DNA from: Escherichia coli
Lineage (GTDB): Bacteria > Pseudomonadota > Gammaproteobacteria > Enterobacterales > Enterobacteriaceae
Assembly (NCBI RefSeq): GCF_003334815.1
Contig: NZ_QOWO01000024.1
Direction: 5' to 3' (one strand)
DNA length: 64,000 bases
The position numbers and the translations under genes were made by a program. A model generated the notes under the pieces. That model was not told the DNA's origin. It worked only from the letters and a program-made list of their open reading frames with translations, and searched no databases. Below are positions 4,744 through 64,000 of this stretch, piece by piece (the stretch's first letter is position 1; each line of letters starts with the position of its first letter).

Positions 4744-5010
4744 ATGGAATGGCTGGTCAAAAAATCGTGCTGCAATAAACAAGATAACAGACATGTACTT
4801 ATGCTCTGCGATGCTGGCGGCGCGATAAAAATGATCGCCGAAGTGAAGAGTGACTTCGCCGTGAAAGTGGGGGATTTACTCTCGCCTTTGCAGAATGCGC
4901 TTTATTGTATTAATCGTGAAAAGCTGCATACGGTGAAAGTCCTCTCGGCAAGCAGTTATAGCCCCGATGAGTGGGAACGGCAGTGTAAAGTGGCAGGGAA
5001 AACTCAGTAA
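4744..5010 (+). CDS. pmrD: Signal transduction connector protein PmrD
   Basis: The ORF track gives 4714-5010 (98 aa); the internal ATG at 4744 yields the 88-aa protein beginning [15 protein letters not shown], which I recognise as PmrD; located between menE and the arn operon. Confidence 0.88.
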
Positions 5011-5390
5011 CGTTGTTTTGTCGTGGGCAGGAAAATCAGCATCAACCCGCTCATAATACAGGCTACTCCCAGTAGTGCTTTCAGCGAAAAAGTCCCTTCC
5101 CAGCCGGGAAGTACCATTGAAGCAATCCATACCAGCACATAACTCATACTGAGCAAGGCATAGGCTTTGCTTAGCGCAAGTTTATGAAGCGTTTTATACC
5201 AACAAAAAACGGAAAGCAGATAACCCAGCAGCCCGAGTAACAGTATCCGGGCATCCAGGCCAAAAGCTAACAGAGCCGCGATAAAATCCCATAAGTGCGT
5301 CATCGGCGGCAGATGACTCGCCGCAAAACCCAGGCTTAATTGCGCAACTGAGGCAATAATGACGCTGAATAATCCCCACATCAGGCCCAT
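5004..5390 (-). CDS. arnF: Undecaprenyl-phosphate-aminoarabinose flippase subunit ArnF
   Basis: 128-aa small multi-TM protein (start [10 protein letters not shown]) taken from an internal start of the 222-aa track ORF; last gene of the arn operon; start codon overlaps the arnE stop by 1 nt. Confidence 0.85.
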
Positions 5391-5725
5391 TACACCGTAC
5401 TCCCGAGGATCACAATGCCGCCAATAATGAACGCCACCCCACACCAGTGACGCGGCGATACCGGTTCGTGCCACAGTTTTACTGCAGCCAGCGTCACCCA
5501 GACAAAATTCAGACTTAACATCGGGTAAGCAATGCCTACCGGTACGTTCTGCAAGACCAGCAGCCAGAGCACCATGGCAAGACCAAGACAAGCCAGCGCC
5601 AGTCCCAGCCACAGCACGATATGTTTGCGCCGTTTGTTTATCGCCACAAAGCAGGTTGCCTGTTTCTGACACAACTGCCCGGCAACGCTAAGCAAGCTGG
5701 CAAAGACTAATGTTAGCCAGATCAT
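5390..5725 (-). CDS. arnE: Undecaprenyl-phosphate-aminoarabinose flippase subunit ArnE
   Basis: 111-aa EamA/SMR-like membrane protein; ATGA overlap with the arnT stop. Confidence 0.88.
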
Positions 5726-7374
5726 TTGGGACGATACTGAATCAGCACCAGACGCTCCTGACGATCGATGGCATCTGCGGGCGGAATGGCGAGACTGTTG
5801 ATATCTTCATCGCGGTCAACCGAAAGCACGAGAGTAATAATCCCCTCCTGACGATGTTGATTAAGCCAGTTTGCGAACTCATCACCGCTGACAAATCTCC
5901 CTTTCGCATCCGGATAATTAAGGCCGTATTTCAACTCACCTGTCTGGCGATACATGATGATGTCATCGCGTTGCAGGCTCCATGCCAGACCTGCGGCAAC
6001 ACCGACGCTATCAGTAAGAATATAGCGGCTTGGCTGAAGTGATTCTTGTGTCATCTCGACAAAAAATTGCGGATGTTTTCCTTCCATAACTCTGTCAGGA
6101 ATTGAAAATCCTACCAGCAACGCCAGCCCCAGCGGGCAAAGCGCGGCAAAAGGCCAGGTCTTTTCGACGTTTGTTAAGGTGTACCAGCCGAAAAATGCCC
6201 ATAGCGAAAAAATCGACCAGGCACAAAAGACTTTATAGCTCTCGAAGGTTTGCCACACCGGCGTGTTCATTGGTCCCCACGGGGAGACCACAAATGTGGC
6301 AATAATGCCAGTGACGCCAAAAGCGATGTTAATCCAGCCATTAATCCGCAGCGCCAGAGGATTATTTTTTGCTGCCAGCAAAGCGTAATGCGCCATCAGC
6401 ATTGCCAGAGATGCAAAGCAGGAAAGAATATAGGTGGGCAATTTACCTTTAGCGACGGAGAAAAACAGCAGCGGCATTATCGTCCAGCTCAACAAATAGA
6501 CGGTTGCGGAATGCTTGCGGTTTTTCCAGCCTGTGTACAGTGCACCGGGGAGTAATCCCAGCCACGGCAGGCTACCGGCAATGATGACCGGCACGTAGTA
6601 CCAGAACGGAGCTCTATGTTGGGCATCATCCAGTGCAAAGCGTTGAATATGCTCAACCCAGAAAAAATAGTGCCAGAAGTTAGGCTCCCGCTGCGCTATC
6701 GCCAGTCCCCAAGGGAGAACCGTCAGTACGCAACTGATAACCGCCAGCCAGCCGTAAATAAAGAGATCTTTCCAGCGTTTTTGCGTCGCTACCCATGGCA
6801 GCACGCTTAATACCGGCACGGCAAGGGCGAGAAAACCTTTGGTCATCACCCCCATGCCGCAGGTGATTCCCAGCAGTAAAAATCCTGCGCTTTTGCCTTT
6901 CCACGTCTGTGCCTGCATTGCCAGCCAGAAGCTGCACATTCCCGCCACCAGCCAGAATGCAATAAACGGATCGAGCACGGCATAAGTGCCGATGGCATAG
7001 ACAATAAACAATGAGAGATAAATTACTGTGGCGAGTAGAGCCAGACGTTTATCGCGCCATAAGCGCAGAGTAAACCAGGTCACCAGCGCGGCAGTTAACA
7101 GGGTCGCAAAGATAACGCCTGCCCGCACACCAAAGTTATTCGCGCCAAATAGCCATTGCCCAATGCTGTTAATCCAGTATCCGGCAATGGGTTTTTCGAA
7201 ATAACGTAGCCCTAACAGATGGGGCACAATCCAGTCGCCGGATGCCAGCATTTCTCGACTGATTTCCGCATAACGCGTTTCATCGGGTTGCCAGAGCAGA
7301 CGCGTGCTGATCGGTAACAGGTAATAGCAGGCAATAAACGCGAAGAGGCCGATAAGGTAACGTACCGATTTCAT
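5722..7374 (-). CDS. arnT: Undecaprenyl phosphate-alpha-L-Ara4N : lipid A transferase
   Basis: 550-aa polytopic glycosyltransferase (family 83-like) in arn operon position. Confidence 0.93.
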
Positions 7375-8264
7375 CAGCGACTACCCGCAATTTGTTGGCA
7401 ACCCAGCCAGCCTTCACGTCCGGCAATATTTCCGCGAACAACTTGTCCGAGCGGCAACGTCTCTGATAACAGTTCGCTTAAAGGGCAAAATGTCACGCCT
7501 TCCTGAGCTGCGCGTTTGAGGAGATCCACAAAATTATGCTGATAAGCGCAGCCTTCAACTTCTGCATGAATGGTATAAACCGGCGTGCCTTTATCTCGCA
7601 GGATGCGGTTGAGTAACCAACCGTTAAAATCTTCTGCTTTCACATCCCGACCAATCACTTCATCCCAGGTGGGTAAGGTCACCGGAATTTGCGCAGTGCC
7701 AGGGTTTCCTGATTCGAGCAATGGACGGAACGGCATGGCCCCACGACAATCGCTGTTGTAGCGCAAATGGAACGCTTCTTTTGCTTCGATCACCTTCTGG
7801 TCGGCACGCCAGCCCGCAGCGGCAGAACAGGTTACCGGTTGACCGATAATCTCTTCCAGAGTGCGAAGACCGCGTGCAATATCGTCGATCATTGTTTGCC
7901 GATCCCAGTTACCGCTACGGGCTTGCCAGGCATGGTGATCCCAGGCGTGCAGGCCGACTTCGTGATGTTTAGCCGCTTCACGAATGATATCGGCATTGGC
8001 ATGACCAATCTCTTTACCTGGCCAGGCCGTACCTGCCAGTAAAATATCCCAGCCATAAAGCGATGCCGCGTTTGAGCGCAGCATCTTCCACAAAAACTGT
8101 GGCTTCACCAGTCGCCAGAGATGGCGGCCCATATTGTCCGGGCCGACGCTGAAAAAAATGCTGGCCTGAATATTATGCTTACTCAAGATTTCCAGCAGAC
8201 GCGGCACGCCTTCACGGGTGCCACGAAAGGTATCGACATCAATGCGTAAGCCTACTTTGGTCAT
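7374..8264 (-). CDS. arnD: 4-deoxy-4-formamido-L-arabinose-phosphoundecaprenol deformylase
   Basis: 296-aa polysaccharide-deacetylase-fold protein; start overlaps the arnA stop. Confidence 0.92.
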
Positions 8265-10242
8265 GATGGTTTATCCGTAAGATCAACGGTGCGCAGGAAG
8301 AAATCCAGCGTTTCGTCGATGGTTTCCTGCATATCAATTTTCGGCTCCCAGTCCAGGCAGCGGTGGGCATTGCGGATGCTCGGTTTACGATGCTCTACGT
8401 CCTGATATCCTTTGCCGTAGTAGCTGCTACTTTCGACAACGCGAAAGCCCGCAAACGGTGGGAAATGATGGCGCAGCGGATGTTTTTCGAAGCTCGCCAG
8501 CAGCATCTCGCCCAGTTCCTCAATGCTCGCTTCGTTCTCAGGATTGCCAATGTTGATAATTTCACCGTCGCAGCGATTTCCCGCATTTTCGATAATGCGG
8601 TATAACGCCTCGATACCATCGCGAATATCAGTAAAGCAGCGTTTTTGTTTTCCGCCATCAATCAGCTTAATCGGTGAACCTTCTACCAGATTGAGAATGA
8701 GTTGCGTAATAGCGCGGGAGCTGCCAATTCGCGCTGCATTAAGGTTATCCAGTCGTGGTCCCATCCAGTTAAACGGGCGGAAGAGGGTGAACTGTAAACC
8801 CTCTTTTTCGCCATAGGCCCAGATCACCCGATCAAGTAATTGTTTTGATACCGAATAAATCCAGCGTGGTTTATTCACCGGGCCGACGATTAAATTAGAA
8901 TGGTCCTCATCGAAGTATTTATCGCTACACATCCCATAAACTTCTGAAGTTGACGGGAAGATGATTCGCTTACGGTACTTCACGCAGTAGCGGATAATGC
9001 GCAGATTCTCTTCAAAATCGAGTTCAAATACGCGCAGCGGGTTGCGGGTATATTCAATCGGCGTGGCTATCGCCACCAGCGGCAAGACGACATCACATTT
9101 TTTGACATGATACTCAATCCATTCGGAATGAATACTGATATCGCCTTCAACAAAGTGAAAATGCGGATGATTCAGAAAACGGCTTATCGCATCGCTGCCA
9201 ATATCCAGACCGTAAACTTCATAATGATCTTCGCGCAGCAGGCGTTCTGTCAGATGGTTGCCAATAAAGCCATTCACCCCGAGGATGAGTACCCGGGTAC
9301 GGCGTCGGGCGGTGCAGGCAGGCTGGCTATTCAAGCGTGAACCTTGCACCAGGCCCAGCGTCTGCGCTAATTGCGAGCCCTGCATAGTAATGCCGTCGCC
9401 CGCCTGTCCGGTGACGATTTCCAGCGCGCCATCGCCACAGGCAATCAGCAGTGGCGCAACAGAAATCACGCTCCCCGGCTGTGCTTTGCTGGCACGAGGA
9501 TGAACACGCGACGACCAGACGGTGAATTTCTGATTGCCAACATAGCTGAAGGCACCCGGCCACGGATCGGCAACGGCACGTACCATGTTGTGCAGTACGG
9601 ATGCCGGTTTATGCCATTCAAGGAAACTGTCATCCGGCGTTCTGCGACCAAAACAGGTGGCTTCGTTTTCGCGCTGGGCGATTTCCAGAATATTACCGTG
9701 TTTAATGGCGGGTAATGTCTGTTCCAGTAGCTGGCGCGCGGCATGGCACAATTTATGATGCAGCGTAATAGCGATATCGTCTGGCGCAATGGCAATGCGC
9801 AGTTGCGCCACAATGGCCCCGGCATCGGCACGTTTCACCATTCGGTGCAATGTAACGCCAGTTTCCGTTTCACCGTTGACCAGCACCCAGTTCAGCGGCG
9901 CGCGACCACGATATTTTGGTAACAGCGAACCATGCAGATTAAATGCACCTGCGGGAGCGAGCTGCAAAATTTCGTCGTAAATAAGATGGCGATAATAAAA
10001 AGAGAAAATCACATCTGGCGACAGTTGGGCAATGCGTTCCACCCACAGCGGATGATTAACGTTATCCGGCGCATAAACCGGAATGCCTCTTTCCGCCGCC
10101 AGACGAGCCACCGAACCATAAAAGGCTTTTTCACCGGGATTATCAGTATGGGTAAAAATGGCGCTAATTTCGTAACCGGCAGCCAGCAGGGCTTCAATAC
10201 CGAGGCATCCCATATCGTGGTAGGCAAAAACGACGGTTTTCA

Positions 10243-10243
<1 letters not shown>
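8261..10243 (-). CDS. arnA: Bifunctional UDP-glucuronic acid decarboxylase / UDP-Ara4N formyltransferase
   Basis: 660 aa; N-terminal formyltransferase domain ([12 protein letters not shown]...) and C-terminal NAD-binding [10 protein letters not shown] Rossmann motif. Confidence 0.95.
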
Positions 10244-11214
<971 letters not shown>

Positions 11215-12354
11215 TTATTGTCCTGCGAGTTGCTGAAGGGCTGTGATGACATGGTCGGCATCGGCGGTAGTCATATCCGGGAACAGCGGCAAAGAACAGA
11301 TGCGTTCGCTATTCCATTCGGTATTCGGTAACGACAGCGTGGGAAAACGCTCGCGATAATATTTTTGTGTGTGAGCGGCGCGGAAATGTAACCCGGTACC
11401 AATGCCTCTTTCTTTTAACGCTTCCATCAACGCATCGCGACTGATACCACAACGTTGTTCATCGACACGAATAATAAACAGATGCCAGGCGTGAACGTGC
11501 GGCCAGGCGGGAAGGCTTAATGGCTGAAAGGGGAGAGCTGCCAGTGCTTGCTGATATTGCTGGGCAATTTCGCGCCGACGGGTGTTGAGGTGCTCTAATT
11601 TGACTAACTGTGTCAGGGCAATCGCGGCGTTAATATCGGTCAGATTGTACTTATAGCCCGGTGTTAAGACTTCAGCCTGCGGTGCACGGCCCCAGGTTTG
11701 TCTGTCATAGGCATCGACACCCAGACCGTGAAATTTCAGCATCCGTAGCTGGCGGGCAAGGTTTTCATTATCAGTTACAATCAGGCCACCTTCAGCACAG
11801 GTAATATTTTTAATGGCATGAAATGAAAAAATAGCGGTACCTTTTGCGCCAATATGTCGCCCTTTGTAATACGTACCGACGGCATGGGCAGCATCTTCGA
11901 TAACTGCGATGCCGTAACGTTCGCCAATGGCGCGAATGGCGTCAATATCTGCTGGCGCACCGGCATAATGCACCGGAATGATGGCTTTAGTGCGTGGCGT
12001 AATGGCTGACTCGATAGCTTCAGGCGTGACCATCAGCGTATCGCGGTCGACATCCACCATTACCGGCGTTGCACCCAACAAGGAAATCATATTGAGGGTT
12101 GAAACCCAGGTCAGGGAAGGCGTAATCACTTCATCGCCCTTGCCAATTTTCAACGCCATTAGCGTGATATGCATTCCGGCGGTGGCTGAACTGACCGCGA
12201 TGGCATGCTGATTTCCCGTCAACTGGCAAAAAGCTTGCTCAAGCGCCTGATTCTTCGGACCGGTTGTGATCCAACCGGATTCGAGAACCTCTTTAACTGC
12301 AGCGAGTTCCTCCACGCCCATTGCTGGTCGCGAAAAAGGCAAAAATTCTGACAT
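11215..12354 (-). CDS. arnB: UDP-4-amino-4-deoxy-L-arabinose--oxoglutarate aminotransferase (PLP-dependent, DegT family)
   Basis: Track ORF 11215-12387 (390 aa); start set at the ATG giving [13 protein letters not shown] (379 aa), which matches the ArnB N-terminus as I recall it; two alternative in-frame ATGs lie upstream. Confidence 0.9.
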
Positions 12355-12452
12355 TGCTTTTCCTTCCGCCATTGAATACCTGTCCACTTATATTTGCTAT
12401 AAAGAGTGTTGTGTATATTTTGCCATTTGGAGCGAAATTTTAAGGATAGAAT

Positions 12453-38715: not shown

Positions 38716-38861
38716 TGGCACTTCTACTCCGTAATTGGCAAGACAAACGAGTATATCAGGCATTGGATGTGAATAAAGCGTATAGGTTTACCTCAAACTG
38801 CGCGGCTGTGTTATAATTTGCGACCTTTGAATCCGGGATACAGTAGAGGGATAGCGGTTAG

Positions 38862-41489
38862 ATGAGCGACCTTGCGAGAGAAATTACACCGGTCAACATT
38901 GAGGAAGAGCTGAAGAGCTCCTATCTGGATTATGCGATGTCGGTCATTGTTGGCCGTGCGCTGCCAGATGTCCGAGATGGCCTGAAGCCGGTACACCGTC
39001 GCGTACTTTACGCCATGAACGTACTAGGCAATGACTGGAACAAAGCCTATAAAAAATCTGCCCGTGTCGTTGGTGACGTAATCGGTAAATACCATCCCCA
39101 TGGTGACTCGGCGGTCTATGACACGATCGTCCGCATGGCGCAGCCATTCTCGCTGCGTTATATGCTGGTAGACGGTCAGGGTAACTTCGGTTCTATCGAC
39201 GGCGACTCTGCGGCGGCAATGCGTTATACGGAAATCCGTCTGGCGAAAATTGCCCATGAACTGATGGCCGATCTCGAAAAAGAGACGGTCGATTTCGTTG
39301 ATAACTATGACGGCACGGAAAAAATTCCGGACGTCATGCCAACCAAAATTCCTAACCTGCTGGTGAACGGTTCTTCCGGTATCGCCGTAGGTATGGCAAC
39401 CAACATCCCGCCGCACAACCTGACGGAAGTCATCAACGGTTGTCTGGCGTATATTGATGATGAAGACATCAGCATTGAAGGGCTGATGGAACACATCCCG
39501 GGGCCGGACTTCCCGACGGCGGCAATCATTAACGGTCGTCGCGGTATTGAAGAAGCTTACCGTACCGGTCGCGGCAAGGTGTATATCCGCGCTCGCGCAG
39601 AAGTGGAAGTTGACGCCAAAACCGGTCGTGAAACCATTATCGTCCACGAAATTCCGTATCAGGTAAACAAAGCGCGCCTGATCGAGAAGATTGCGGAACT
39701 GGTAAAAGAAAAACGCGTGGAAGGCATCAGCGCGCTGCGTGACGAGTCTGACAAAGACGGTATGCGCATCGTGATTGAAGTGAAACGCGATGCGGTCGGT
39801 GAAGTTGTGCTCAACAACCTCTACTCCCAGACCCAGTTGCAGGTTTCTTTCGGTATCAACATGGTGGCATTGCACCATGGTCAGCCGAAGATCATGAACC
39901 TGAAAGACATCATCGCGGCGTTTGTTCGTCACCGCCGTGAAGTGGTGACCCGTCGTACTATTTTCGAACTGCGTAAAGCTCGCGATCGTGCTCATATCCT
40001 TGAAGCATTAGCCGTGGCGCTGGCGAACATCGACCCGATCATCGAACTGATCCGTCATGCGCCGACGCCTGCAGAAGCGAAAACTGCGCTGGTTGCTAAT
40101 CCGTGGCAGCTGGGCAACGTTGCCGCGATGCTCGAACGTGCTGGCGACGATGCTGCGCGTCCGGAATGGCTGGAGCCAGAGTTCGGCGTGCGTGATGGTC
40201 TGTACTACCTGACCGAACAGCAAGCTCAGGCGATTCTGGATCTGCGTTTGCAGAAACTGACCGGTCTTGAGCACGAAAAACTGCTCGACGAATACAAAGA
40301 GCTGCTGGATCAGATCGCGGAACTGTTGCGTATTCTTGGTAGCGCCGATCGTCTGATGGAAGTGATCCGTGAAGAGCTGGAGCTGGTTCGTGAACAGTTC
40401 GGTGACAAACGTCGTACTGAAATCACCGCCAACAGCGCAGACATCAACCTGGAAGATCTGATCACCCAGGAAGATGTGGTCTTGACGCTCTCTCACCAGG
40501 GCTACGTTAAGTATCAGCCGCTTTCTGAATACGAAGCGCAGCGTCGTGGCGGGAAAGGTAAATCTGCCGCACGTATTAAAGAAGAAGACTTTATCGACCG
40601 ACTGCTGGTGGCGAACACTCACGACCATATTCTGTGCTTCTCCAGCCGTGGTCGCGTCTATTCGATGAAAGTTTATCAGTTGCCGGAAGCCACTCGTGGC
40701 GCGCGCGGTCGTCCGATCGTCAACCTGCTGCCGCTGGAGCAGGACGAACGTATCACTGCGATCCTGCCAGTGACCGAGTTTGAAGAAGGCGTGAAAGTCT
40801 TCATGGCGACCGCTAACGGTACCGTGAAGAAAACTGTCCTCACCGAGTTCAACCGTCTGCGTACCGCCGGTAAAGTGGCGATCAAACTGGTTGACGGCGA
40901 TGAGCTGATCGGCGTTGACCTGACCAGCGGCGAAGACGAAGTAATGCTGTTCTCCGCTGAAGGTAAAGTGGTGCGCTTTAAAGAGTCTTCTGTCCGTGCG
41001 ATGGGCTGCAACACCACCGGTGTTCGCGGTATTCGCTTAGGTGAAGGCGATAAAGTCGTCTCTCTGATCGTGCCTCGTGGCGATGGCGCAATCCTCACCG
41101 CAACGCAAAACGGTTACGGTAAACGTACCGCAGTGGCGGAATACCCAACCAAGTCGCGTGCGACGAAAGGGGTTATCTCCATCAAGGTTACCGAACGTAA
41201 CGGTTTAGTTGTTGGCGCGGTACAGGTAGATGACTGCGACCAGATCATGATGATCACCGATGCCGGTACGCTGGTACGTACTCGCGTTTCGGAAATCAGC
41301 ATCGTGGGCCGTAACACCCAGGGCGTGATCCTCATCCGTACTGCGGAAGATGAAAACGTAGTGGGTCTGCAACGTGTTGCTGAACCGGTTGACGAGGAAG
41401 ATCTGGATACCATCGACGGCAGTGCCGCGGAAGGGGACGATGAAATCGCTCCGGAAGTGGACGTTGACGACGAGCCAGAAGAAGAATAA
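38862..41489 (+). CDS. gyrA: DNA gyrase subunit A
   Basis: 875 aa; active-site Tyr region AAMRYTE; quinolone-resistance-determining region reads [11 protein letters not shown]; acidic C-terminal tail. Confidence 0.98.
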
Positions 41490-41506: not shown

Positions 41507-41530
41507 AAAAGGGAGCTATCTCCCTTGTTT
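41507..41530 (+). terminator. Rho-independent terminator downstream of gyrA
   Basis: AAAAGGGAG-ctat-CTCCCTTGTTT: GC stem plus T-tract 18 bp after the gyrA stop; a second weaker hairpin with T-run follows at about 41543-41568. Confidence 0.65.
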
Positions 41531-41637: not shown

Positions 41638-48484
<6,847 letters not shown>

Positions 48485-63924: not shown

Positions 63925-64000
63925 CTGATGAATCCCCTAATGATTTTGGTAAAAATCATTAAGTTAAGGTGGATACACATCTTGTCATATGATCAAATGG
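63925..64000. mobile_element. IS10 (Tn10) outside terminal sequence, first 76 bp; rest of element beyond the window edge
   Basis: 63925-64000 reads CTGATGAATCCCCTAATGATTTTGGTAAAAATCATTAAGTTAAGGTGGATACACATCTTGTCATATGATCAAATGG, which I recognise from memory as the IS10 outside end, including the palindromic AATGATTTTGGTAAAAATCATT segment. Confidence 0.85.

Follow-up and report, generated by a model that had tools for sequence, protein, structure and literature searches.

[quoted passage not shown] The window, the whole stretch of 64,000 nucleotides that was analysed, contains an open reading frame on the plus strand (38862-41489) that codes for DNA gyrase subunit A, and it was assigned on the basis of the open reading frame list, the family score and the PDB match. 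According to the open reading frame list the ATG is located at 38862 and the stop codon at 41487-41489 on the plus strand, resulting in a protein of 875 amino acids plus stop. We are almost certain that this is a chromosomal gyrA with a wild-type QRDR, from a phylogroup-A-like E. coli that is, at this locus, a close relative of K-12. The wild-type QRDR is the ancestral, textbook state and is already known. It reveals nothing new about gyrase or resistance; its value lies in routine genotyping, as a gyrA without the target-site mutations that begin stepwise fluoroquinolone resistance.

The quinolone-resistance-determining region of gyrA

The QRDR has been defined as residues 67-106 of GyrA (PMC9953508). 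In the window, codons 67-106 occupy positions 39060-39179 (plus strand), which is exactly the span given in the sequence-only reading, and translation as well as nucleotide comparison with a K-12-type reference showed that the region is fully wild type. The K-12-type reference chromosome is NZ_CP026361.1, where gyrA is located at 2336793-2339420. Within the QRDR there are zero nucleotide differences from this reference, and the translation is the same. Codon 83 reads TCG (39108-39110, plus strand) and encodes the wild-type serine; codon 87 reads GAC (39120-39122, plus strand) and encodes the wild-type aspartate. Both codons had been placed exactly to the base in the sequence-only reading, and the 11-residue stretch quoted there corresponds in the translation to GyrA residues 78-88. 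It had also stated that neither S83L nor D87N/G/Y is present, which is borne out by the alignment to the reference gyrA, in which Ser83 and Asp87 are unchanged.

The positions at which gyrA alterations may confer resistance (51, 67, 81-84, 87, 106, 119 and 196) showed no alteration in comparison to K-12. Here, the gyrA comparison revealed the K-12 residues A51, A67, G81, D82, A84, Q106, A119 and A196. The GyrA of E. coli K-12 (WP_001281242.1; PDB 6rks, 3nuh and 1ab4) has the same start, the same length of 875 amino acids and an identical QRDR, and it also shares Tyr122, the GyrA box and the ubiG-gyrA-yfaA neighbourhood.

[quoted passage not shown] Going by this water-metal-ion bridge, which is taken from the literature, the two residues would anchor the fluoroquinolone-bound Mg2+ via two waters near the DNA-cleaving Tyr122 in the enzyme encoded here as well. 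The drug would then be expected to bind and to trap the gyrase-DNA cleavage complex, which would lead to cell death. Since both anchors are intact, the gyrA allele gives no target-site protection. Thus, gyrA contributes no fluoroquinolone resistance here; this statement applies to gyrA alone, and parC, parE, gyrB, the efflux regulators and plasmid genes are located outside the window. According to the genetic code, each of the four substitutions is a single base change away: TCG to TTG results in S83L, and GAC to AAC, GGC or TAC results in D87N, D87G or D87Y, respectively. S83L would take one transition, and this one base change would open the classical resistance path.

The sequence-only reading had called this a fluoroquinolone-susceptible genotype, which is correct as far as gyrA is concerned; taken as a description of the strain, it goes beyond gyrA. 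The strain might be less susceptible to fluoroquinolones despite its wild-type gyrA, due to determinants outside the window. These include the plasmid genes qnr, aac(6')-Ib-cr, qepA and oqxAB, up-regulated efflux via marR, acrR or soxR, as well as changes in gyrB, parC or parE. None of these loci lies within the 64-kb window, which leaves room for such an effect, and we consider it unlikely. The 64-kb window follows K-12 colinearly, is free of acquired genes and therefore includes no plasmid-type quinolone-resistance gene. It is general knowledge that gyrase is the primary quinolone target in E. coli and that a change in gyrA is usually the first chromosomal step; high-level resistance would therefore not usually be expected while gyrA is wild type. 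The preferred reading remains a gyrA allele that is wild type and does not itself protect against the drug.

The frequencies of the wild-type and the resistant alleles were compared in 5,426 complete genomes using exact 40-mers across codons 79-91, which were placed such that no 28-base seed remains when there is a mismatch in either of codons 83 and 87. The wild-type 40-mer was present in 639 of the 5,426 genomes, the S83L 40-mer with the same synonymous background in 72/5,426 and the S83L+D87N 40-mer, again with this background, in 331/5,426; the 40-mers cover the K-12-like synonymous background only (1,042/5,426 genomes), and the numbers are relative frequencies, not species-wide prevalence. 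In the resistant alleles codon 83 reads TTG, and in the double mutant codon 87 additionally reads AAC; otherwise they are the same gene with the same synonymous background in codons 79-91, of which the window carries the wild-type version. Both the wild-type and the mutant states of gyrA are common and thoroughly documented.

The V541L substitution in the C-terminal domain

Outside of the QRDR, gyrA differs from K-12 at a single position. Altogether, 2,627 of the 2,628 nucleotides are identical to K-12 gyrA, and the one difference from NZ_CP026361.1, G1621T at window position 40482, changes valine 541 to leucine (V541L) in the C-terminal domain. Comparison with the PDB and the K-12-type sequences showed that codon 541 (40482-40484, plus strand) is TTG for leucine, whereas K-12 has GTG for valine. 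The residue belongs to the beginning of the DNA-wrapping C-terminal domain and precedes the GyrA box by 19 residues. It had gone unnoticed in the sequence-only reading.

The local 40-mer with this change was found in only one of the 5,426 complete genomes, that of strain 52F4 from a calf in Switzerland. The GyrA of 52F4 (WP_061352875.1) is identical to the protein encoded in the window, including V541L, Ser83 and Asp87, and the two gyrA genes differ by one synonymous change at nucleotide 855. V541L is thus rare but already catalogued under this accession. In public collections the exact protein is found on 36 contigs from independent assemblies and includes the UniRef entry A0A377DPK9. In addition, a comparison of the window with contig CBDBYT010000026.1 (GCA_965212685.1) covered 22,628 bases and showed no difference.

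In its small lineage, V541L might alter the drug response or gyrase function, the latter through the supercoiling set-point or the wrapping of DNA. If this were true, the change might shift these properties subtly. It is the sole amino acid difference from K-12 GyrA, its local 40-mer is rare (1/5,426 complete genomes), and it lies as few as 19 residues before the GyrA box, all of which would fit an effect. However, the swap is between aliphatic residues and conservative, and when 99 diverse GyrA proteins, each representing a cluster at 50% identity, are aligned, column 541 contains Val 50 times, Ile 31 times, Leu 15 times, Phe twice and Thr once, so that leucine is native in 15 of the 99 proteins. 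The exact protein is moreover encoded on dozens of independently assembled contigs, the calf isolate among them, and the QRDR is far off in sequence. The literature searched ties V541L in E. coli gyrA to no phenotype; gyrA and V541L co-occur in one paper, a study on Clostridioides difficile. A functional effect of V541L is therefore very improbable in our view. Because the change is conservative and leucine is native in many gyrases, V541L is read as neutral, and it is very probably a neutral lineage marker.

Start codon, flanking signals and identity of gyrA

The labels 83 and 87 depend on the start codon, and the sequence-only reading had named a corrected start as the point on which its numbering could fail. 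With the ATG at 38862, gyrA codon n begins at 38862+3(n-1), so that codons 83 and 87 start at 39108 and 39120, respectively. Directly 5' of this ATG the sequence contains an in-frame TAG (38859-38861, plus strand), and since the two adjoin, no upstream gyrA start is possible; an alternative upstream start codon was therefore rejected. In the open reading frame list, too, the frame begins with the first start codon available. The gyrA CDS of the K-12-type RefSeq annotation and the full-length PDB chains also begin with this Met1 and run to 875 residues. A true start elsewhere, which would mean that the residues are not positions 83 and 87, could draw on the spacing of 11 nucleotides between a GAGGG motif and the ATG, which is rather long, and on an in-frame ATG downstream (Met26). 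The upstream direction is barred by the TAG, however, and both RefSeq and the complete PDB chains agree with the window in Met1 and in length. Furthermore, the labels 83 and 87 are defined on the 875 amino acid form, and another physiological start would leave the conventional labels unchanged. We give a shifted start next to no chance: the TAG, the RefSeq start and the PDB alignment over residues 1-875 keep residues 83 and 87 in place, and the numbering stands after a search for a start-codon correction.

The GAGGG motif (38846-38850, plus strand), read from the sequence, is Shine-Dalgarno-like and may function as such. Further upstream, at 38809-38817 (plus strand), visual inspection revealed TGTTATAAT, which matches the extended -10 element perfectly and is likely the gyrA promoter; we take it to be so from what we know of the K-12 gyrA promoter. 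A consensus scan for sigma-70 promoters, which also requires a match to the -35 element, did not list TGTTATAAT at gyrA. Downstream of the gene, 20 nucleotides past the stop codon, a terminator-like hairpin followed by a T-rich tail is located at 41509-41526 (plus strand), which is a consensus match only. We infer that these promoter-like, Shine-Dalgarno-like and terminator-like signals fit a normal gyrA transcription unit.

The open reading frame at 38862-41489 (plus strand) is E. coli gyrA. The protein scores 1308.3 bits with the gyrA equivalog model TIGR01063 (NCBIfam), for which the cut-off is 877. In contrast, the models for ParC remain below their cut-offs (parC_Gneg 579 < 628.9; parC_Gpos 693.1 < 813.25). 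E. coli GyrA in PDB 6rks aligns from residues 1-875 to residues 1-875 with a single mismatch. The gene of 2,628 nucleotides is matched in 5,426/5,426 complete E. coli genomes with at least 95% identity, and in all complete E. coli genomes listed the matching position is annotated as gyrA. With this match, and with a single base outside the QRDR setting it apart from the K-12-type sequence, the pattern is no product of chance. For the exact protein, the Pfam families PF00521 and PF03989 are recorded, with the N-terminal DNA_topoisoIV domain and the C-terminal beta-pinwheel repeats, which carry the GyrA box.

The catalytic residue of the DNA-cleavage site, Tyr122, is encoded by TAT (39225-39227, plus strand), as read from the sequence, and column 122 is Tyr in 98 of the 99 diverse GyrA representatives in the alignment. 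This tyrosine is the catalytic residue of type IIA topoisomerases in general. The GyrA box QRRGGKG, identified by translation and by its conservation in the alignment, comprises residues 560-566 (40539-40559, plus strand); it marks gyrase and not topoisomerase IV. The genes yfaL, ubiG (on the opposite strand), gyrA, yfaA, yfaT and yfaS follow each other in the same order as in K-12. Together with GyrB, the protein would carry out ATP-dependent negative supercoiling, as suggested by the 874 of 875 residues that it shares with the biochemically characterised K-12 protein.

The paralogue parC, coding for subunit A of topoisomerase IV with the equivalent residues Ser80 and Glu84, was rejected outright, as the ParC models and structures do match the protein, but more weakly and in the PDB with far lower scores, whereas the gyrA equivalog lies above its cut-off and both parC models below theirs, the GyrA box is present, the second anchor residue is Asp and not Glu, only V541L separates the protein from E. 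coli GyrA, and the neighbouring genes are arranged as around gyrA in K-12. Two antisense open reading frames within gyrA (39024-39995 and 40008-40628, minus strand) were taken as shadow reading frames of a known coding gene.

The rest of the window

The 64,000 nucleotides correspond to K-12 at approximately 2.314-2.378 Mb in a colinear and gap-free manner, without inserted genes before the last 75 bases. Compared to NZ_CP026361.1, 15 single-base differences were found, which are located at 9495, 17264, 18472, 20915, 21059, 25338, 33166, 33724, 36998, 40482, 42734, 47983, 49728, 59337 and 59759. Fourteen of these differences are genic, of which 12 change a protein and two are synonymous. The protein changes are arnA H250R, rhmD I133V, yfaV R115G, rpnE L155P and Q107L, glpA D100N, gyrA V541L, yfaA Q366R, yfaS stop1338W, yfaQ S415F and rcsC R311L and M452V. 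Such a pattern would be expected from a very recent divergence with little purifying selection, or from a mix with changes specific to K-12 laboratory strains.

The gene yfaS (43970-48484), which codes for a protein of the alpha-2-macroglobulin family, is intact in the window and has TGG for tryptophan at codon 1338 (base 47983). The K-12-type yfaS has TGA at this codon and is annotated as a pseudogene with an internal stop. Since yfaS is intact, unlike in K-12, the window comes from a close relative of K-12 and not from K-12 itself.

Near the end of the window, the colinearity with K-12 stops abruptly in rcsD, the gene for the phosphotransferase of the Rcs phosphorelay, with a junction at approximately 63925. 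The final 75 bases of the window (63926-64000; TGATGAATCCCCTAATGATTTTGGTAAAAATCATTAAG...) correspond to the end of an element that occurs in multiple copies, at up to 45 sites in a genome, both in chromosomes and in plasmids. Where annotated, the element adjoins a gene for an 'IS4-like element ISVsa5 family transposase', i.e., it is IS10-like. From the matching bases, it appears that an insertion sequence with an IS10/ISVsa5 end interrupts rcsD. No complete genome among the 5,426 has this junction between rcsD and the element.

The genes ais, arnBCADTEF and pmrD, which are related to lipid A modification and polymyxin tolerance (5004-12387, minus strand, and neighbours), are present and colinear with K-12. 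The locus shows one amino acid difference from K-12, H250R in arnA.
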